From: Escherichia phage teqsoen
Direction: 5' to 3' (one strand)
DNA: 64,000 nucleotides
Sequence record: MN895436.1
This document shows positions 1 through 62,091 of the stretch, piece by piece. The notes under the pieces are model-generated. The model was given only the letters and a program-made list of their open reading frames with translations, did not search any database and was not told the origin of the DNA. Position numbers and translations under genes: made by a program. Each line of letters starts with the position of its first letter. Position 1 is the first letter of the stretch.

Positions 1-168
1 ATATTTGGCCCATGCCAAATACAAAGCATCAGATTTGATAAAACACCTAATGGTAACTTTAACGGATTAGCTATTGCTCCAAACCTCCCTAGTACATTTA
101 CTCTTGAGATTACTATGAGAGAAATTATCACGTTAAACCGTGCTTCTTTATATGCGGGGACTTTTTAA
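1..168 (+). CDS. 48: Baseplate protein gp48, C-terminal fragment (5' partial at window edge)
   Basis: Open frame from base 1 to TAA at 166-168 overlapping the gp54 ATG (TAATG); position upstream of gene 54 as in T4. Confidence 0.5.
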   Translation: MFGPCQIQSIRFDKTPNGNFNGLAIAPNLPSTFTLEITMREIITLNRASLYAGTF

Positions 169-1133
169 TGTATTCTTTAGAGGAATTTAATAATCAAGCA
201 ATAAACGCAGATTTCCAACGTAATAATATGTTTAGCTGCGTTTTTGCGACAACTCCATCAACTAAAAGCTCTTCGTTGATAAGTTCAATTAGCAACTTTT
301 CTTATAATAACTTGGGCCTAAATTCAGATTGGTTAGGATTGACTCAAGGTGATATTAATCAGGGAATTACCACGCTAATTACTGCTGGCACACAAAAACT
401 GATAAGAAAATCAGGGGTTAGTAAATATCTTATTGGCGCTATGAGTCAACGTACAGTTCAAAGTTTATTAGGCTCATTTACAGTTGGTACATATTTAATT
501 GACTTCTTTAACATGGCATATAACTCATCTGGATTGATGATATATTCTGTAAAAATGCCAGAGAATAGATTATCCTATGAAACTGACTGGAACTATAACT
601 CTCCTAATATTCGTATAACTGGAAGAGAATTAGACCCTTTGGTTATTTCATTTAGAATGGATTCAGAAGCTTGTAACTATCGTGCAATGCAAGACTGGGT
701 TAACGCTGTTCAAGACCCAGTAACTGGATTGCGTGCTTTACCGCAAGATGTCGAGGCAGATATTCAGGTTAATCTTCATTCTCGTAATGGATTGCCTCAT
801 ACTGCGGTGATGTTCACTGGATGCATTCCAATATCAGTGAGCGCTCCTGAGTTATCATATGATGGAGATAACCAAATAACTACATTTGACGTTACTTTTG
901 CGTATAGAGTGATGCAGGCTGGAGCAGTTGATAGGCAAGCTGCGCTTGAATGGCTTGAATCTGCTGCTATAAATGGTATTCAAAGCGTTCTCGGAAATAG
1001 TGGAGGTGTTACTGGACTATCTAATTCGCTTTCACGACTCAGTAGATTAGGGGGAACTGCAGGAAGCATTTCAAACATTAATACTATGACAGGAATTGTC
1101 AATTCGCAAAGTAAAATATTAGGAGCAATATAA
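168..1133 (+). CDS. 54: Baseplate tail-tube initiator gp54
   Basis: 321-aa ORF, ATG start; size and position (before alt) match T4 gp54. Confidence 0.8.
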   Translation: MYSLEEFNNQAINADFQRNNMFSCVFATTPSTKSSSLISSISNFSYNNLGLNSDWLGLTQGDINQGITTLITAGTQKLIRKSGVSKYLIGAMSQRTVQSLLGSFTVGTYLIDFFNMAYNSSGLMIYSVKMPENRLSYETDWNYNSPNIRITGRELDPLVISFRMDSEACNYRAMQDWVNAVQDPVTGLRALPQDVEADIQVNLHSRNGLPHTAVMFTGCIPISVSAPELSYDGDNQITTFDVTFAYRVMQAGAVDRQAALEWLESAAINGIQSVLGNSGGVTGLSNSLSRLSRLGGTAGSISNINTMTGIVNSQSKILGAI

Positions 1134-1137
1134 CAAT

Positions 1138-1167
1138 GGGGACCTTTCGGTCCCCATATTTTTATTT
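1138..1167. terminator. Hairpin GGGGACC-TTTC-GGTCCCC plus T-tract between convergent genes
   Basis: Perfect 7-bp stem with tetraloop followed by ATATTTTTATTT, directly after gp54 stop and after the minus-strand 96-aa ORF. Confidence 0.55.
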
Positions 1168-1452
1168 ACGGAATGAAATAAAAGCAGCAACTGAAGCAAC
1201 TAAACTGTCTTCAATATAAACCTCAATTTTTACCGGAGCTTCTGACTCAAATTTACCTGTTACTATACCCTGAAAAATACTTTCAGTCTGTTCTGGCTTT
1301 GAAAAATTTTCAGAAGGAAAAATTCCGAACTTTTTATCTGTTCCAAAAATTTTAATAAATTCATCGTAAACTGCTTCATTAAAAGCATTATCAGCAGGAA
1401 TAACGCCTTCAACTACAAGTTCTTGACCTAAAAAGCGCAAAGAAGATTTCAT
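1162..1452 (-). CDS. Hypothetical protein (96 aa)
   Basis: ATG start with GAGGAA Shine-Dalgarno; early promoter immediately upstream. Confidence 0.5.
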   Translation of the reverse strand: MKSSLRFLGQELVVEGVIPADNAFNEAVYDEFIKIFGTDKKFGIFPSENFSKPEQTESIFQGIVTGKFESEAPVKIEVYIEDSLVASVAAFISFRK

Positions 1453-1483
1453 TTTGTGTTCCTCATGTTATGCCAGTAAGACT

Positions 1484-1512
1484 ACTATAACACAACACGA
1501 GGGACTTGTAAA
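1484..1512 (-). promoter_or_regulatory. Early sigma70-type promoter (-35 TTTACA, 17 bp, -10 TATAGT)
   Basis: Minus-strand GTTTACA...TATAGT with 17-bp spacer; flanked by inverted repeat cctcatgtt/aacacgagg; near-identical copy at 16791-16819. Confidence 0.55.
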
Positions 1513-3570
1513 CTACATTTTGAACTTTTTAGACATTCCGTTGATGTTAACCAAAGAAGCCAAGATTTGAGAAACTTCGTTTTCCTCTTCTTTTGATTCT
1601 TCTACAAGGAATTGATTAAATCCAGCCATTGGACGAACTTCACCAGTTTCCATTAGATGGTCGCCATCATATACCGATTCCTCTAATTGTTCAGAAGGAG
1701 GAACGATTGTACCTTCTATTAGATACTTGTTATAAGCAGTTTCTTTCATAAAGTACGTGCTCACTTTATTAATCTTCAGTAAAATTCCACGCGGTAGAAT
1801 AACTTCAGCTTCTGATGGAAATCCTGATAAATGACCTGGAACGATAACTTTGATTCGCTCAGCTCCTTTAATTACCATACCCACGCTAGTTTCAGCATCT
1901 TCATTAGCATATGTAGAATGACTACCCATATGCATCAAATCTTCTGCATCAACGGAACCTTCTCCTTCGCCAGAAAATACTGCGCCGGAATCATCTAGAG
2001 CCATATAGTTTTTACCGTGCTCACCGAAAATATTTGGTTTAAGCGATGTGGATACGAAGTTCTTGAAATAGAACATTTTGTTTTCAATATTATGACGCAA
2101 AGTTTTAAAGGTAACTTCTTGTCCACGGTAAAGTGTAGTTCCTGGAGGAAGAACTGAACCTTTAGCGAATGCAGAATCCAACGTCTCGATGTGCTTAATA
2201 GCACGTTCCATATATTCTTCACGGGTAGAATCTGGTTTACCCAAAAGGAACGAGTTCATTTCAACATATGAATCAGCACAATAATCTTCAATTACGTCAG
2301 ATTCAGCCTGAGTTAATCCTTTTGGAGTTACTTCAGTACTTGCGTATTCATATGCCTGGGCAGCAGATTCATTAATCAATTTATAAATGCCATTCATGAC
2401 AAATTGAATAATAGCTACCTTTTCATCTGGTGTGGCTTTAGAACCTTTAACTAAATCATTAATAATTTTCTTAATAACATCAAAGCTATTAGAAATATTA
2501 ATGTCAGCAAGATCGCTTAAAATTTTATCGGTTTTATAATCAAAGAATTCTTTATTCTTTAAATATTCTTGAGAACCTTGATATGTTATATCGCTCTGCA
2601 GCTTGATAGATGGATCACGTAAACGTGCATGGGCCAATGCAATATGATTTCGGAAGCTTTCTAGTTCATAATCATTAGATTTAAAACGAGAAGCACTCCT
2701 CATACCACCGATAGCTCCTTTGCCGAAGTTTGAACCAATCTGAATAACGCCAGAGTTCATTGGTCCTTCTGCTTTATATACCGGAACTTTAGATTCAAAC
2801 TCTTGATATTTCTTAGCGGCGAAGCTATCACCCTGAAGTGAAGCATCGACAGTAGAATATTGAGCTTGTGCTGCTAATCGACGACTAATTTTAGTTTTCT
2901 GAATAACAGCTTGATCCGTGCGCTTATCATTTTCTAAAGCAATAGAAGCAGCAACAGCAACAGCTTTAGGAACAGCATTACCTGTTTTAACGTCTACATA
3001 AACATCACCAACCTTTGATTCAACTTTTGTGAATAACTCAGTTGAAATAGGAGGTACACCTGGAATGTCTTCTAAATTGGCATTTTTACGGTAAACCATA
3101 ATATATGCATATTTCTTATCATAGTCCCAGATTTCCTTTAAGAGAACATATCGACCTGCTCCTTTAGTACGTACTAAACGGTCAGCAATAACTTGCATTT
3201 GACGAGCTGCGCCATTTGTTTTACTCTTTAGTACGCGGAATAGGCATGCGTCGATTTTATACTGTTTCATTGTTTGAAGAGCAGTATCAAAAACGGCATT
3301 AATGACACCAATTGGATTTCCACCCAAGTTTTTAAGCTTAACTAATGATAGTTTCTCATTGACACCTATCATTACGATATGCATCATTTTATCGCCTGGC
3401 TTAACGTTTTTATTTGTATCACCACCAGAGGTGTATGTACAAAATCTAAATCCAGGAAGCACGCTTTCTTCGCCGGCTTGGATAGCAAAAATTTGTGGTA
3501 TTTTATGCTTAGGATTTAAGTTAACAACCGGCGCCGAAGCGCCGTCAAATAATTCTGTAATAAGTTCCAT
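1513..3570 (-). CDS. Alt-like mono-ADP-ribosyltransferase paralog (685 aa)
   Basis: N-terminus MELITELFD shared with neighbouring Alt; C-terminal ART motifs YRGQ, FVSTSL, EAEVILPRG (R-S-E triad). Confidence 0.8.
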   Translation of the reverse strand: MELITELFDGASAPVVNLNPKHKIPQIFAIQAGEESVLPGFRFCTYTSGGDTNKNVKPGDKMMHIVMIGVNEKLSLVKLKNLGGNPIGVINAVFDTALQTMKQYKIDACLFRVLKSKTNGAARQMQVIADRLVRTKGAGRYVLLKEIWDYDKKYAYIMVYRKNANLEDIPGVPPISTELFTKVESKVGDVYVDVKTGNAVPKAVAVAASIALENDKRTDQAVIQKTKISRRLAAQAQYSTVDASLQGDSFAAKKYQEFESKVPVYKAEGPMNSGVIQIGSNFGKGAIGGMRSASRFKSNDYELESFRNHIALAHARLRDPSIKLQSDITYQGSQEYLKNKEFFDYKTDKILSDLADINISNSFDVIKKIINDLVKGSKATPDEKVAIIQFVMNGIYKLINESAAQAYEYASTEVTPKGLTQAESDVIEDYCADSYVEMNSFLLGKPDSTREEYMERAIKHIETLDSAFAKGSVLPPGTTLYRGQEVTFKTLRHNIENKMFYFKNFVSTSLKPNIFGEHGKNYMALDDSGAVFSGEGEGSVDAEDLMHMGSHSTYANEDAETSVGMVIKGAERIKVIVPGHLSGFPSEAEVILPRGILLKINKVSTYFMKETAYNKYLIEGTIVPPSEQLEESVYDGDHLMETGEVRPMAGFNQFLVEESKEEENEVSQILASLVNINGMSKKFKM

Positions 3571-3573
3571 GAT

Positions 3574-5664
3574 TTATCCTTGAACGAACTTGTAAGGCAT
3601 GTTTGTAATATCTATGCAAGACGCAATAATTCCAAGAGATGATTCTACTTTCTGTTTAACATTTGATGAAACAAATGATGCAAAGTCAACTCTATCTTCT
3701 ATATCACCTGTCATTGTAACCAATTCACCAGTTTCCATTAAATGGTCTCCGTCATAGATTACTGATTCGGTGAGTTCTTCTGTGGTCATAACTTCAGCTT
3801 GAATGAGTTTTGTATTATTAGATGTTGTTCCGTCATTATTAGAAGCATCAGTTATTTTATTAACTTTGACCATCAATCCGCGCGGTAGAATAACTTCAGC
3901 TTCTGTTGCTATTCCGAGACTTCCTGGATATACAACATTAACTTTATGCGCGCCGTCAATTGCCCATCCTATTTGAACTTTAACGTATTCAGGATTTTCT
4001 TTATACGCTCTTATTTCGTTTGGATTAATAGTTATTCCTTCTTCATTTTTATCAACTGTTAATTCATTACGAGCTTCTGGTTCTAAAAGACCAATACCAG
4101 CATGTGTAATTCCAAAACGCCCAAAAATGATAGGAGTTAAAGAAGTAGATACAAAATTTCTGAAATAGAACACTTTATTTTTAACTAGCGCTTCGTATAT
4201 AGGAGCAGTCATACTTTGAGCACGATAAACTGTAATGCCTTCCGGTATGCGGTCACCATTTTCAAAAGCTGAATCTAAATTATTTATAGCAGATTCAATT
4301 TCTTTTTCACTCATTACATCATATCGTTCTGGATTGTAACGACCTAAAAGAAGATTATTAATGTCTGTATATCCTGAACCACAATATTCTCTAATGCCGC
4401 GCTTTTGTGATGGAGTATATTTAGAACCATCACGGGCAATAGTAATATCAATCATTGGACCAGCACCAATTCCAGAAAAGCTATAAATCATTCGTTTGAG
4501 GAATTTAGTTTTTGCTGCATTCCAGGCATTTTTAGTTATTTCTTCCCAGACTTCATCTGGCTGCCCTTTACGAGTTTTATTATGTTTATCAAGCCAATTA
4601 TCTTTATATTCTTCAAAGAGTTGATTAACAGCTGCTGCGTATTTCTCTAAACATTTTATTGAAGTAGTTGGTTCATTTTTAATCGCATTAAGAATTACAT
4701 CTTTAATTTTTTCAGAAACTTCATTAACCTCACTTTTTGAAAAGAATTTATAGTCATAATGAAGTTCATCTGCAGTTCCTTCAGCAATAATTTTTGCTGC
4801 CTTAGTTTTAGAAGCTAATGAATTAATTCCAAGCTTCATTTCTTCTGCTTCGGGAATTAAAGGAGCGGTAGCAGGTTTATTGAAATTAGCTGCAGTAGAT
4901 TCATACTTCTGGAATAATTCACTTTCAAATCTAGAAGACTCTAACGATTGACTTTGCGCAATTGCTCTACGGGAAATTTTAACTTTAACGATTACAGCTT
5001 GATCAGAACGTTTATCATTTTCTTGCGCAATAGATGCTGCAATTGCCTCATTTTTAGTTACTTGGGCTCCAGTATCTTTATTGATATAAACATCACCGAC
5101 CTTCGATTCAACCTTAGTAAAGAGCTCGGTACTAATTTCCGGAACCCCTGGAATGTCTTCTAGTGATACATTTTTGCGATGTATAAGAATATATGCATAC
5201 TTTTTATCGTAATCCCAGAGTTCCTTAAGAAGGACGTATCTGCCACCTGAACGACTACGGATAAGTCTATCAGCAATAACTTGAATTTGTCGAGCTTGAC
5301 CAGCGGTTTTAGACTTAAGAATACGGAGCATACAGGCATCAATTTTATACTGACGCATTGTTTGCATTGCAACAGTAAAAACTGAATTGATATAATTAAT
5401 TGGGCTTGGACCAAGACCTTTCAATTTAGCAATTGAACCTTTAGCAGTTAATGTAAAAGGAACAATATGCATCATTTTATCGCCCATCTTTAAATCACGA
5501 TTAGTATCACCTCCAGATGTATAGGTACATAAACGAAAGCCTGGTTGTTCAATTGCATCATCAACGTGAACTGAAAAAATTTGCGGTATTTTCTTCTTTG
5601 GATTTAAGTTTGTAATCGGAAGAGTAGTATCTTCGTCAAATAATTCTGTAATGAGTTCCATCAT
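3574..5664 (-). CDS. alt: ADP-ribosyltransferase Alt (696 aa; packaged RNA polymerase-modifying enzyme)
   Basis: N-terminal MELITELFD with ITE prohead-protease-type site; ART motifs YRAQ, FVSTSL, EAEVILPRG; late promoter upstream; adjacent to gene 30 as in T4. Confidence 0.85.
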   Translation of the reverse strand: MMELITELFDEDTTLPITNLNPKKKIPQIFSVHVDDAIEQPGFRLCTYTSGGDTNRDLKMGDKMMHIVPFTLTAKGSIAKLKGLGPSPINYINSVFTVAMQTMRQYKIDACMLRILKSKTAGQARQIQVIADRLIRSRSGGRYVLLKELWDYDKKYAYILIHRKNVSLEDIPGVPEISTELFTKVESKVGDVYINKDTGAQVTKNEAIAASIAQENDKRSDQAVIVKVKISRRAIAQSQSLESSRFESELFQKYESTAANFNKPATAPLIPEAEEMKLGINSLASKTKAAKIIAEGTADELHYDYKFFSKSEVNEVSEKIKDVILNAIKNEPTTSIKCLEKYAAAVNQLFEEYKDNWLDKHNKTRKGQPDEVWEEITKNAWNAAKTKFLKRMIYSFSGIGAGPMIDITIARDGSKYTPSQKRGIREYCGSGYTDINNLLLGRYNPERYDVMSEKEIESAINNLDSAFENGDRIPEGITVYRAQSMTAPIYEALVKNKVFYFRNFVSTSLTPIIFGRFGITHAGIGLLEPEARNELTVDKNEEGITINPNEIRAYKENPEYVKVQIGWAIDGAHKVNVVYPGSLGIATEAEVILPRGLMVKVNKITDASNNDGTTSNNTKLIQAEVMTTEELTESVIYDGDHLMETGELVTMTGDIEDRVDFASFVSSNVKQKVESSLGIIASCIDITNMPYKFVQG

Positions 5665-5684
5665 ATCCTCTCTAGTGTTTATTC

Positions 5685-5692
5685 TATTTATA
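5685..5692 (-). promoter_or_regulatory. Late promoter TATAAATA upstream of alt
   Basis: Reverse complement of tatttata reads TATAAATA about 20 bp upstream of alt start. Confidence 0.5.
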
Positions 5693-5713
5693 AAATTAAA
5701 GGCCCGAAGGCCT

Positions 5714-5902
5714 TTAATAATCTATAGGTAAGAGAGTACGATATATTTCAAACTTTGGACCTTTTTCATAAGCATCAAAAGTTTCTGTGAATTTATTATA
5801 AGCATATGCATCTATAAATTCAATCATGATTTGTGATACAGAAGTAGAAACATCTCCACCTTCTTTTTGAGCCACGACAATTGTTTCTAAGTAAGCTTTC
5901 AT
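5714..5902 (-). CDS. Hypothetical protein (62 aa)
   Basis: ORF between ligase and alt; stop overlaps no gene, start overlaps ligase stop region. Confidence 0.45.
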   Translation of the reverse strand: MKAYLETIVVAQKEGGDVSTSVSQIMIEFIDAYAYNKFTETFDAYEKGPKFEIYRTLLPIDY

Positions 5903-7362
5903 AAACCAGTTACCTCATGAAAATCACCAAATACATCCTCGAATGTATTAGCTTTAGTTTTATCTTCACGCAAACGAATCGCAATTGGAAGAAATAATTT
6001 AACGTAATCAGTGCGGCCATCGGATTTTAACCAACCGTTGCATTCGCACTCTAGAATTTTTCCAATATAATAATTTTGGTTTTCCATAATGCGAGTACGG
6101 TCAAGTTCATGTGATTTTACGCCGGCTTTATCTTTTAAGCCTGAACCGGCATTTACCTTAATTTTTCCACACTCTGACTCAAGAATAAATCCACCTGCTT
6201 TAGTAGGGTCTTTACGGTGAGGATAAATTCCTACAATTTTTAAATCAACATCAATTACTTCTTTAAATTTATAGAGATTTTTTGAACGAGCATTTTCCCA
6301 TAATCCATCGATATTTTTGAGAATAATACCTTCAAGACCTTGGTCAATATACTTTTTATAAATTACCTTAGCTTCATCTAGGTTATTTACTACTTGGTTT
6401 TCAATTAAAATTACTTTATCATAGCCTGATGTCATTTGTTCTAATTTAGAAAAACGTACATCATATTTTAAACGAAATGCTGGAAGACCGTATATTTCTA
6501 CCAACGGAACATAATCCCAGACCTGAAACTTCATGCATTGAGCTTCTTTTTCTGAAATAGTTCCCTTTAAAGATTTATTAGCGATTCCATTAGAAGTAGT
6601 ACGTGATTCAGCTACTTCAGCAAACTCTTTAGCTTTACTAATTTCAGGATAAGCATCAAAAAGAAAATCTAGGCCTTCTGGCTCCTTTTTAACTTGCTCA
6701 TGGTATACCAATTCGCCATCAATTAACACACCTCCTGGATGAATCTGGCGGGCTTCAGCGGTCATTTTGATTAACTCTTCCTTAAGAAGATCTAATCCTA
6801 GATATTCATTACCAGCTCGTGATAAAAGACGGACATCATCTAATTCATCACCTCTAACTTCAGCAAAACACCGAGCTCCATCTGCTTTTAATTGTGCAAA
6901 GGCTGGAAATTTGATATTCTTACTAATGCCTTTTTCATCATAAGAACTTGCGAGCATTTGAGGTTGTTCAGGAATTAAACCTGGCCAAACTTTGTTTGCA
7001 ATAGATACTGAAGCACCGCATTCAAGGTCTCGCATCATCACTCGACGCAAAACTTCAACATCATCTTTTTTACCATCGGTGATATATCCAGATAATTCCT
7101 CAATTGCCGCATTTCCGGTCAATTTCCGAGTAGCTAACGTGAATTCAATGAAGTCAAGCATATCGGTAAGAGTCAACATTCCAAAACTCTGGGTAGCAAT
7201 ACCAGATTTAGGCCATTTCTTGATATAATACTGCAACCCACGAGAATAAGTCAGACGATATACTCGTTTAAGCAATTCATTATCTTTATTCTTTTCAAGA
7301 ATTGCTTGCTTCTGCTTAGTTGAACCAATAGATGCTATTTCGTTTAGAATTTTAAGAATCAT
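5899..7362 (-). CDS. 30: ATP-dependent DNA ligase gp30
   Basis: 487 aa; N-terminus MILKILNEIASIGSTKQKQAILEKNKDNELLKRVYRL recalled as T4 DNA ligase; adenylation motif KADGAR. Confidence 0.97.
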   Translation of the reverse strand: MILKILNEIASIGSTKQKQAILEKNKDNELLKRVYRLTYSRGLQYYIKKWPKSGIATQSFGMLTLTDMLDFIEFTLATRKLTGNAAIEELSGYITDGKKDDVEVLRRVMMRDLECGASVSIANKVWPGLIPEQPQMLASSYDEKGISKNIKFPAFAQLKADGARCFAEVRGDELDDVRLLSRAGNEYLGLDLLKEELIKMTAEARQIHPGGVLIDGELVYHEQVKKEPEGLDFLFDAYPEISKAKEFAEVAESRTTSNGIANKSLKGTISEKEAQCMKFQVWDYVPLVEIYGLPAFRLKYDVRFSKLEQMTSGYDKVILIENQVVNNLDEAKVIYKKYIDQGLEGIILKNIDGLWENARSKNLYKFKEVIDVDLKIVGIYPHRKDPTKAGGFILESECGKIKVNAGSGLKDKAGVKSHELDRTRIMENQNYYIGKILECECNGWLKSDGRTDYVKLFLPIAIRLREDKTKANTFEDVFGDFHEVTGL

Positions 7363-60868: not shown

Positions 60869-61471
60869 TTATAGATTAAATCCTTCAAAATCAAGAGTAT
60901 AGATAGTGTATGTTGAATACTTTTTATACTCATATCTATCTGCAATTCTAAATACACTTCCAGCTGGTATCATTACTTCTTGTTCATCTGAAACTAATTC
61001 CATATTACGATAACGATGACTATCCGGAAACTTAAAGTTTGGATTGTATTCTTTACAGCGTAGAGCTTTTATAGCATACTCCTGGAAATTGAATACCATA
61101 GGAGCTTTGAATTCAAAAATAACTTGTGTGTTATACTCTAAACCGGAAGCAAAATGTAGAGCTATATTTTTATCATATGAAGCTGATACGACTTTATCAA
61201 ATGTAATAATATCAATTCCTTGATTTAATACTTGTTTAGTCTCAGCTGGAACACCTCTCCAAAGAGGTTTATCGTTTGGAACCAAACGAGATTTGATTAT
61301 TTCATTTAACCAAGTATGGTCATCTGGCTTATTAGTAATACAATGAATTAAAAGTTCAATTTCAGATAAATTAAACCCTTCAGAAAGTAATTCTTCACGA
61401 ATAGAAGCACGCACCGATGCATCCATTGATTTTATTTTAAAATCTTTTAGTTGCATTACTGAGTATTTCAT
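60869..61471 (-). CDS. modA: ADP-ribosyltransferase ModA
   Basis: 200 aa; ART-like R/S/E arrangement (WRGVP, VVSASYD, QEVMIPAG); T4 ModA length and position. Confidence 0.82.
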   Translation of the reverse strand: MKYSVMQLKDFKIKSMDASVRASIREELLSEGFNLSEIELLIHCITNKPDDHTWLNEIIKSRLVPNDKPLWRGVPAETKQVLNQGIDIITFDKVVSASYDKNIALHFASGLEYNTQVIFEFKAPMVFNFQEYAIKALRCKEYNPNFKFPDSHRYRNMELVSDEQEVMIPAGSVFRIADRYEYKKYSTYTIYTLDFEGFNL

Positions 61472-62091
61472 TCAACTACCTCAATATCATAAACTTTAAA
61501 TGTTCCAAACGAATCGTGTAATTTTTCTTTTGAAATAGAAGTTATTCTATACTTTCCAATTGGAATCATCCATTCTTGTTCACGCACAATCATCATTAAG
61601 TTATCAGTACGCTCTGAATCTAGCCCATCAGTATCTTCATACGTGTACTTGAACTCAGTATTAGGAGAAGAAAGTATAATATCGCTGATATGGTCAGAAT
61701 AATTAAAAGCTTTATCAGTTTTTAAGCGAAGTATTATTTTAGTAAAATATTCAGCATAAGAAAAAGAACATGCTGTGAGTAAACTAGTAGTAAATGAATC
61801 TACCCTGTTCGTTGAAAACACTTCTCCAACTTGTAAATCTTTAATAAGTTCTTCTGTTGATTTTGATATACCACGATATAACTGATAAGGTGATTTAGTT
61901 AAATGCTTTTTAATGATTTTATTCAACTGCCGATGAAGAGCTTCATTCTTTTTGGCTTCCATACATTGCCAAAGAACAGACTGCTCAAAATCAGTAAATT
62001 TTTCACAGACCTTTTTATACATATCATATTGAAAATCAACGCTTTCAGCTTTTATAGATAACTGTTCAACATCTGCAAGATTAATAATCAT
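61468..62091 (-). CDS. modB: ADP-ribosyltransferase ModB
   Basis: 207 aa; YRGISKS, FSTNRV, QEWMIPIG motifs; T4 ModB length and position. Confidence 0.82.
   Translation of the reverse strand: MIINLADVEQLSIKAESVDFQYDMYKKVCEKFTDFEQSVLWQCMEAKKNEALHRQLNKIIKKHLTKSPYQLYRGISKSTEELIKDLQVGEVFSTNRVDSFTTSLLTACSFSYAEYFTKIILRLKTDKAFNYSDHISDIILSSPNTEFKYTYEDTDGLDSERTDNLMMIVREQEWMIPIGKYRITSISKEKLHDSFGTFKVYDIEVVE

Follow-up and report, generated by a model that had tools for sequence, protein, structure and literature searches.

Analysis of a 64,000-nucleotide stretch of the genome of Escherichia phage teqsoen (sequence record MN895436.1; hereafter, the window), a segment of a Tequatrovirus (T4-like) genome, showed two adjacent large open reading frames (ORFs) at the alt locus. 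The two genes very probably form a late operon for two head-packaged, injected mono-ADP-ribosyltransferases of the arginine type, belonging to the T4 Alt family and situated in an ordinary alt locus. Judged by their divergence, the two enzymes most likely differ in the host proteins that they modify. A tandem pair of 685 and 696 amino acids had been reported in an initial annotation made from the sequence alone, and the ORF list contains both genes on the minus strand:

3574-5664, minus strand: alt (copy B), ORF of 696 amino acids
1513-3570, minus strand: second paralogue (copy A; alt.-2 or Alt2), ORF of 685 amino acids

Copies A and B are 41% identical over about 716 columns (BLASTP, E = 2e-163); this similarity is far beyond chance, and the two genes are clear paralogues. 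Both proteins match the Pfam family PF03496 (ADPrib_exo_Tox), copy A with E = 7.5e-20 and 71.5 bits and copy B with E = 1.8e-37 and 129 bits, the gathering cut-off of the family being 23.4 bits. The PHROG family phrog_802, ‘Alt-like RNA polymerase ADP-ribosyltransferase’, matches both copies end to end (5.4e-256 for copy A and 1.5e-273 for copy B), and no NCBIfam model was found for either of them. The catalytic set is represented by R482, S507-T-S and E587-A-E589 in copy A and by R481, S506-T-S and E588-A-E590 in copy B (numbering of the 696-residue form). The arginine, the serine of S-T-S and both glutamates of E-x-E occupy invariant columns in 33 diverse members of the family, T4-type Alt included. 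The initial annotation had ascribed a common MELITELFD N-terminus and the R-S-E motifs of ADP-ribosyltransferases to both products; the first is indeed common to both, the second agrees with the PF03496 matches and with the invariant columns, and the alignment that it had proposed as a check for a copy without catalytic residues showed that neither copy lacks them.

Identity between the copies, followed by windowed alignment in the residue numbering of copy A, is about 53-82% for residues 1-235, about 10-20% for the middle (240-440), about 35-47% for the catalytic core (460-540), about 7-20% for residues 540-600 and about 30-50% for the C-terminal tail. The catalytic domains are about 35% identical, and their loops before E-x-E differ. 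The middle modules belong to separate families in BLAST clustering, and a distant homology of these families, considered as a candidate, was excluded by profile-profile comparison, in which hhalign found no homology between them (probability 0.4%, 19 columns). The earlier description of a divergent middle is accordingly correct as to where identity is lowest, but this is not mere divergence, homology being absent at the profile level. A role of the middle module in target recognition, as suggested by the initial annotation, would be a possibility.

The following parts were distinguished in copy A:

2866-3570, minus strand: N-terminal propeptide (MELITE, ITE-6) and alpha/beta domain, amino acids 1-235; 68% identical to the domain of copy B and T4 Alt
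2326-2865, minus strand: all-helical middle module, amino acids 236-415 (secondary structure from AlphaFold2)
1678-2325, minus strand: ADP-ribosyltransferase domain, amino acids 416-631, ending at the predicted protease site LEE-631 (Pfam match at residues 416-620)
2125-2127, 2050-2052, 1810-1812 and 1804-1806, minus strand: catalytic codons R482, S507, E587 and E589, respectively
1516-1677, minus strand: predicted C-terminal propeptide, amino acids 632-685, with YDGDHLMETGE (aligned to the LTE-619 site of T4)

The corresponding parts of copy B are as follows:

4954-5664, minus strand: N-terminal propeptide (MELITE, predicted cut after ITE) and N-terminal domain; about 100% identical to T4 Alt residues 1-245
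3766-4953, minus strand: variable cassette, composed of a helical middle (about 4429-4953) and the ADP-ribosyltransferase domain (about 3766-4428)
3577-3765, minus strand: predicted C-terminal propeptide after LTE-633, with YDGDHLMETGE; about 100% identical to the T4 Alt tail

The AlphaFold2 model of copy A, based on the 33-sequence alignment (predicted local distance difference test (pLDDT) 77, predicted template modelling score (pTM) 0.71), consists of three parts, namely, an alpha/beta part at about residues 15-235, an all-helical part at about 250-415 and a catalytic part at about 420-625. The pLDDT is about 75-90 in the N-terminal domain and about 85-95 in the strands of the catalytic core; both ends and the region after S-T-S are of low confidence. 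In the fold comparison, made on the copy A model only, the catalytic domain matched Vis, Certhrax, C3bot, CDTa and VIP2 in the PDB (Foldseek, E 1e-7 to 1e-4, probability 1.00, target-normalised template modelling score (TMt) about 0.6). The catalytic fold and motifs are thus shared with the R-S-E toxins (C3-like, Vis, Certhrax, iota/CDTa, VIP2), but sequence identity to them is only 14-20%, their N-terminal and middle domains are unrelated, and they are delivered by secretion or through a binary-toxin pore, in contrast to delivery from a phage head. No solved Alt structure was found among the PDB sequences searched; copy A had no match there by sequence, and the only matches of copy B were weak ones to CDTa and iota toxin (phmmer).

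In T4, Alt is made late and packaged into the head (PMC9026906); besides its activity as an enzyme, a role as head core protein has been described for it (PMC11404850). It is cleaved by gp21 at ITE-6 and LTE-619, with the removal of 63 C-terminal residues (PMC5694885). Predicted sites of the gp21 prohead protease were found in both window proteins: ITE-6 and LEE-631 in copy A, ITE and LTE-633 in copy B. The residue preceding the N-terminal cut, E6, is invariant in the alignments, including that of 33 sequences, in which E631, Y634, D635, G636 and D637 of copy A are at least 90% conserved, and YDGDHLMETGE is located just downstream of the C-terminal site in both copies. Such sites would be expected of proteins that are built into the prohead core and trimmed in the course of maturation. 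The N-terminal region, described initially as a capsid-targeting and protease-site region, is kept in both copies; it is, however, a folded domain of 235 residues (PF26846) and not only a short targeting peptide. On these sequence features, the assignment of both copies to Alt-family enzymes with packaging signals is well supported.

The layout presumably shared by the two proteins comprises a 6-residue propeptide ending in I-T-E, an N-terminal domain of about 230 residues, a helical middle module of about 180 residues, a C3/VIP2-like catalytic domain with R, S-T-S and E-x-E, an L-x-E site and a propeptide of about 55-65 residues. By analogy with T4 Alt, both proteins would be built into the prohead core, trimmed by gp21 at both ends and ejected together with the DNA, and both would use NAD+ for the ADP-ribosylation of arginines of host proteins.

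Expression signals at the locus are represented by the following elements:

5698-5715, minus strand: intrinsic-terminator-like hairpin AAAGGCC-TTCG-GGCCTTT with a T-rich run, directly after the alt.1 stop codon, read from the sequence
5685-5692, minus strand: T4-type late promoter box TATAAATA, exact match, about 20 nucleotides (nt) upstream of the alt start
1484-1512, minus strand: early-type sigma-70 promoter for alt.-3 (TTTACA, 17 nt, TATAGT), 10 of 12 matches and a TG motif

The hairpin, the stem of which is short and which is not listed by a simple terminator scan, would stop early transcription coming from the ligase gene and alt.1. The box TATAAATA at 5685-5692 is assigned to a late promoter because of its position after the terminator and before the Shine-Dalgarno sequence, and this single promoter would drive both genes. 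The stop codon of copy B and the start codon of copy A are separated by 3 nt (TAA-atc-ATG), and copy A has its own AAGGA Shine-Dalgarno sequence and no promoter of its own; given this arrangement, copy A should be co-transcribed late with copy B. The putative promoter of alt.-3, the GTTTAC of which overlaps the TAG stop codon of copy A, marks the probable downstream end of the late alt/Alt2 transcription unit. Another exact TATAAATA is located at 4281-4288 on the minus strand, inside the coding region of copy B and about 710 nt upstream of the copy A start; it may well be a chance occurrence, and, if active, it would give a separate late transcript for copy A.

Copy B is opened by two adjacent ATG codons (5659-5664), and the spacing from the GAGG Shine-Dalgarno sequence is 2 nt for the first of them and 5 nt for the second. 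Because of this spacing, the second ATG (5661; 695 amino acids, T4-like MELITE N-terminus) is the likelier start; the longer form of alt is annotated in the public records of RB32, T2 and T6.

One of the closest known systems, T4 Alt (NP_049811), a head-packaged NAD+:arginine mono-ADP-ribosyltransferase, is encoded in the same locus (between alt.1/ligase and alt.-3/gp54) and has the same architecture, and both of its protease sites, as well as R, S-T-S and E-x-E, are kept in copies A and B. The catalytically dead mutant of T4 Alt is designated ‘E577A’ (PMC11404850). The glutamates of E-x-E are, however, E574 and E576 in the RefSeq protein of T4 (L001:5455-7503, minus strand); the published numbering seems to be shifted by one, and E577 is read as the second glutamate of E-x-E. 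Copy B is 98.4% identical to the alt product of T2, 99.1% to that of T6 and about 72% to T4 Alt, and by its sequence it can be assigned to the T2/T6/RB32-type allele of the packaged Alt ADP-ribosyltransferase. Its first approximately 245 and last approximately 80 residues are about 100% identical to T4 Alt, in contrast to the cassette between them, with 10-70% identity. The synonymous substitution rate (dS) between copy B and T4 is 0.088 in the N-terminal flank and 0.02 in the other flank, and exceeds 1 in the cassette (1.57 in the middle and 1.10 in the catalytic domain); no T4 counterpart of window positions 4425-4855 was found by blastn. To judge from these values, the window alt is mosaic when compared with its T4 counterpart: the flanks are nearly identical, and the middle-plus-catalytic cassette between them is a different one. 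Copy A is 41-42% identical to T4 Alt overall, and its middle module has no homology to that of T4 Alt either. The known targets of T4 Alt cannot be assumed for either of the window proteins.

Different target sets of the two enzymes are considered most likely because their middle modules are unrelated, their catalytic domains are only about 35% identical and the loops before E-x-E differ. Indirect support for differing substrates is provided by an allele difference seen with a Mokosh type I defence system, the evasion of which requires T4 Alt; the Alt of phage Bas37, notably different in sequence, is no substitute (preprint 10.1101/2025.11.20.689424). Both genes are under strong purifying selection in every domain; in comparison with RB32, the ratio of non-synonymous to synonymous substitution rates (dN/dS) is 0.038 in copy A and 0.059 in copy B. 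For copy A, the ratio is at most 0.08 in each domain and 0.078 in the C-terminal propeptide. The second gene thus appears to be functional and not decaying, and T4 has lost it by an internal deletion of 1.69 kb.

The tandem pair of alt genes is already public, and the window has the ordinary configuration of T2, T6 and RB32, which is that of the majority. Hundreds of public genomes match the alt locus with 97-98% identity: the search with window positions 1100-6000 matched 544 phage records, 340 of which span at least 80% of the query, the best being 97-98% identical. Phages T2 and T6 carry both genes with 98-99% protein identity to the window, and copy A is about 99% identical to alt.-2 of T2 and T6 and to Alt2 of Bas36. 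The second gene is annotated as alt.-2, in full length, in RB32 and T6, and the pair is annotated as ‘Alt’ and ‘Alt2’ in the BASEL phages Bas36, 39, 40, 42, 44 and 45 (these are the BASEL loci examined; Bas37 is not among them). In all of these pairs, the genes and their order are the same as in the window, with 98-99% identity of the proteins and 97-98% nucleotide identity over the 4.9-kb locus, and no difference of substance was found. Duplications of alt were noted in T4, RB49 and 44RR by Nolan et al. 2006 (PMC1524935). The initial annotation had allowed that both genes might be universally conserved with functions already described; the second gene is indeed widespread and annotated, but no described function was found for it.

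The same annotation had left unsure whether T4 itself carries both copies. According to blastn and junction mapping, it does not: T4 contains alt (682 amino acids) and two small ORFs, alt.-1 and alt.-2, which are the deletion remnant of the second gene. A note in the T4 record states that alt.-1 and alt.-2 reflect an old duplication of the alt start. The T4 ORFs match the first approximately 116 codons and the last 20 nt of copy A with about 96% nucleotide identity, and the following part of the gene, full-length in the window, is missing:

1533-3222, minus strand: stretch of copy A missing in T4, gene nucleotides 349-2038, about codons 117-679, 1.69 kb (blastn against T4)

The deletion junction is located at an imperfect 9-nt repeat, CTAAAGAGT / CTAAAAAGT. 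An identical junction was found in T4 (L001 5066-5451) and in phage N2 (L007 4848-5234), despite the different alt alleles of these phages; the remnant in N2 is a single ORF of 128 amino acids, and that in T4 is split in two by an extra frameshift. Among 498 matching records, 91 contain the junction (T4, N2 and 89 others), and about 400 keep the gene intact. One shared junction on different alt alleles suggests a single deletion event, later recombined into other backgrounds.

Both types of alt allele occur, in free combination, with the intact as well as with the deleted form of the second gene. The T4-type alt is accompanied by the deleted gene in T4 and by the intact gene in Paracelsus, and the B-type alt by the deleted gene in N2 and by the intact gene in the window, T2 and T6. 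The cargo alleles are discrete: for the B-type, identity is 95% or more in 316 records and 80-90% in 34; for the T4-type, it is 95% or more in 170, and intermediate records are few. For the cargo of copy A, 400 phage records reach an identity of at least 95%, followed by a gap to below 60%.

Several points weigh against the reading of the locus as a late operon for two injected enzymes with different targets. The box TATAAATA is not enriched in the window, where 7 were found against 9.3 expected. We infer the packaging and cleavage of the pair from conserved motifs only, and the distinctness of targets from sequence divergence alone. Since T4 and about 18% of its relatives grow without it, the second gene is dispensable on laboratory hosts. 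The search of the accessible literature yielded neither virion proteomics nor an activity assay or list of targets for the second paralogue; no paper was found with ‘Alt2’ together with phage ADP-ribosyltransferases, and ‘alt.-2’ occurred in one paper only.

The alternative that survives best concerns the purpose of the second enzyme, namely, that Alt2 is mainly a counter-defence effector disabling a host immunity or toxin system, and not a means of transcription tuning; we regard this as quite possible, although we lean against it. It is consistent with the requirement for T4 Alt against Mokosh type I, in which the Bas37 protein does not substitute (10.1101/2025.11.20.689424), with the precedent of the injected T-even head proteins Ip1, Ip2 and Ip3, which are anti-restriction factors encoded at variable loci (PMC12373910), and with the discrete, reassorting cassette alleles at the alt locus. 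However, the Alt2 cargo is nearly monomorphic, its identity of at least 95% in 400 records falling directly to below 60%, unlike a typical arms-race locus. A wider and more speculative form of this idea, which we consider somewhat doubtful, is that the alt locus is a two-slot injected arsenal, in which a constant frame of N-terminal domain and propeptides would carry exchangeable cassettes for different targets, and in which Alt2 would disable a defence or toxin system spared by T4-type Alt. Alt2 would never have been studied because it is absent from T4.

Redundancy of the duplicate is unlikely. In this case, Alt2 would modify the host proteins of Alt, e.g., the alpha subunit of RNA polymerase, adding to the injected dose or serving as a backup. 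The same domain order, the same E-x-E of the arginine type, the same packaging signals and the dispensability of the second gene, lost in T4 and in the other records with the deletion junction, are in line with it. Middle modules without profile-level homology and catalytic domains that are about 35% identical with differing loops argue against it; cargo identity of at least 95% in about 400 genomes at a dN/dS of 0.04 fits a distinct maintained function better, and alleles of Alt were not interchangeable in the Mokosh assay.

It is even less probable, to a degree that we consider slight, that Alt2 is made late but acts in the producing cell or as a component of the prohead core, without being injected as an active enzyme. 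Its late co-transcription and the role of T4 Alt as a head core protein (PMC11404850) would agree with this, but Alt2 shares both cleavage motifs and the entire N-terminal domain with T4 Alt, which is ejected, and the conserved catalytic residues argue against a purely structural role. That the second gene is a functionless relic on its way to the state found in T4 is scarcely credible, in spite of the large internal deletion in T4, N2 and 89 other records, since its frame is intact, all catalytic and cleavage residues are present, its dN/dS is 0.038 overall and at most 0.08 per domain, it has stayed intact in about 80% of the matching genomes (T2 and T6 among them), and the single common junction indicates one event that spread rather than repeated decay.

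The model phage T4, the basis of nearly all Alt biology, represents a minority configuration, with an alt cassette different from that of most relatives and with the second gene deleted. About 80% of its sequenced relatives probably inject a second, conserved ADP-ribosyltransferase, which is under strong purifying selection. The genomic feature itself, a standard T2/T6-type alt locus, is routine, and the residual interest lies in the second enzyme, which is without a described function and missing from T4. In view of the allele differences observed with Mokosh type I, Alt2 would make an inexpensive and clearly defined candidate for counter-defence screens and for the profiling of targets.

The N-terminal domain PF26846 (Tevenvirinae_ADPRT) is recorded on 99%-identical cluster representatives of the copy A type (P0007) and the copy B type (P0122), and likewise on P0012. 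A profile of the domain found only 72 clusters in 1.84 billion proteins, and the match begins within about the first 35 residues in every one of them. All members of atypical length that were checked, except one, contain an ADP-ribosyltransferase region, either detected by Pfam or visibly degenerate. The exception, P0196 (541 amino acids), is a distant member (E 7e-24), in the C-terminal approximately 350 residues of which no Pfam match and no visible R, S-T-S or E-x-E were found; it may represent a cargo other than an ADP-ribosyltransferase on the same delivery domain. The idea of a delivery domain on broadly polymorphic cargos was dropped in view of the 72 clusters, nearly all with an ADP-ribosyltransferase region. 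A word-indexed homologue search with the N-terminal domain alone gave 6 proteins, mostly fragments, which are truncated forms of the B or T4 type and not alternative cargos.

In a separate model of copy A residues 1-420 (pLDDT 79), the N-terminal domain weakly but consistently matched acetyltransferases of the GNAT fold (Foldseek, E 0.035-0.16, TMt 0.17-0.41), and nearly all of its top 50 matches were GNATs or related acyltransferases. GNATs bind acetyl-CoA at a [Q/R]-x-x-G-x-[G/A] loop between a strand and a helix. In copy A, a conserved K117-x-x-G120-x-[G/A] loop is located between the strand 108-114 and the helix 122-136. On the other hand, no match of the domain to the GNAT family was found in hidden Markov model searches of PDB sequences and Pfam, and the helix between its third and fourth strands departs from the canonical GNAT topology. 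A GNAT-like module with a ligand binding or activity of its own may be considered as a weaker possibility.

Chimeric genes were also observed. In P0009-P0012, the N-terminal domain grades from copy-A-like to copy-B-like, and the remainder is the cargo of copy A. The gene P0012 is located directly after alt.1, in the alt slot, where a single fused gene would be expected, on the Logan contigs L003:6001-8061 (SRR19633711) and L004:5030-7090 (SRR19633722), both of which stop 29 nt past the gene. Fusions of the P0012 type were absent from the isolate genomes of the phage collection searched; the fusion could be a real product of unequal crossover, an assembly artefact or a chimera of a mixed sample.

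The surroundings of the pair are represented by the following genes, and the annotations of T4 and RB32 agree with the gene order of the window at the alt locus:

5899-7362, minus strand: DNA ligase
5714-5902, minus strand: alt.1
1162-1452, minus strand: alt.-3
168-1133, plus strand: gp54

Between the convergent alt.-3 and gp54, at 1136-1157, a strong 9-bp GC-rich hairpin, ATGGGGACC-GAAA-GGTCCCCAT, was found, which was scored as terminator-like on both strands in a terminator scan.

Another tandem pair of ADP-ribosyltransferase genes, encoding products of 200 and 207 amino acids and overlapping by 4 nt, is located at 60869-62091 on the minus strand. Both products match phrog_832, ‘RNA polymerase ADP-ribosylase’, and their sizes fit ModA and ModB of T4. 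Like the Alt-type pair, ModA and ModB are a tandem R-S-E pair in one phage, and the genes at 60869-62091 are their homologues in the window; unlike the Alt-type proteins, ModA and ModB are about 200 amino acids long, lack the N-terminal packaging domain and propeptides, and are early and not packaged. With both pairs, the window therefore encodes four enzymes of the ADP-ribosyltransferase class.

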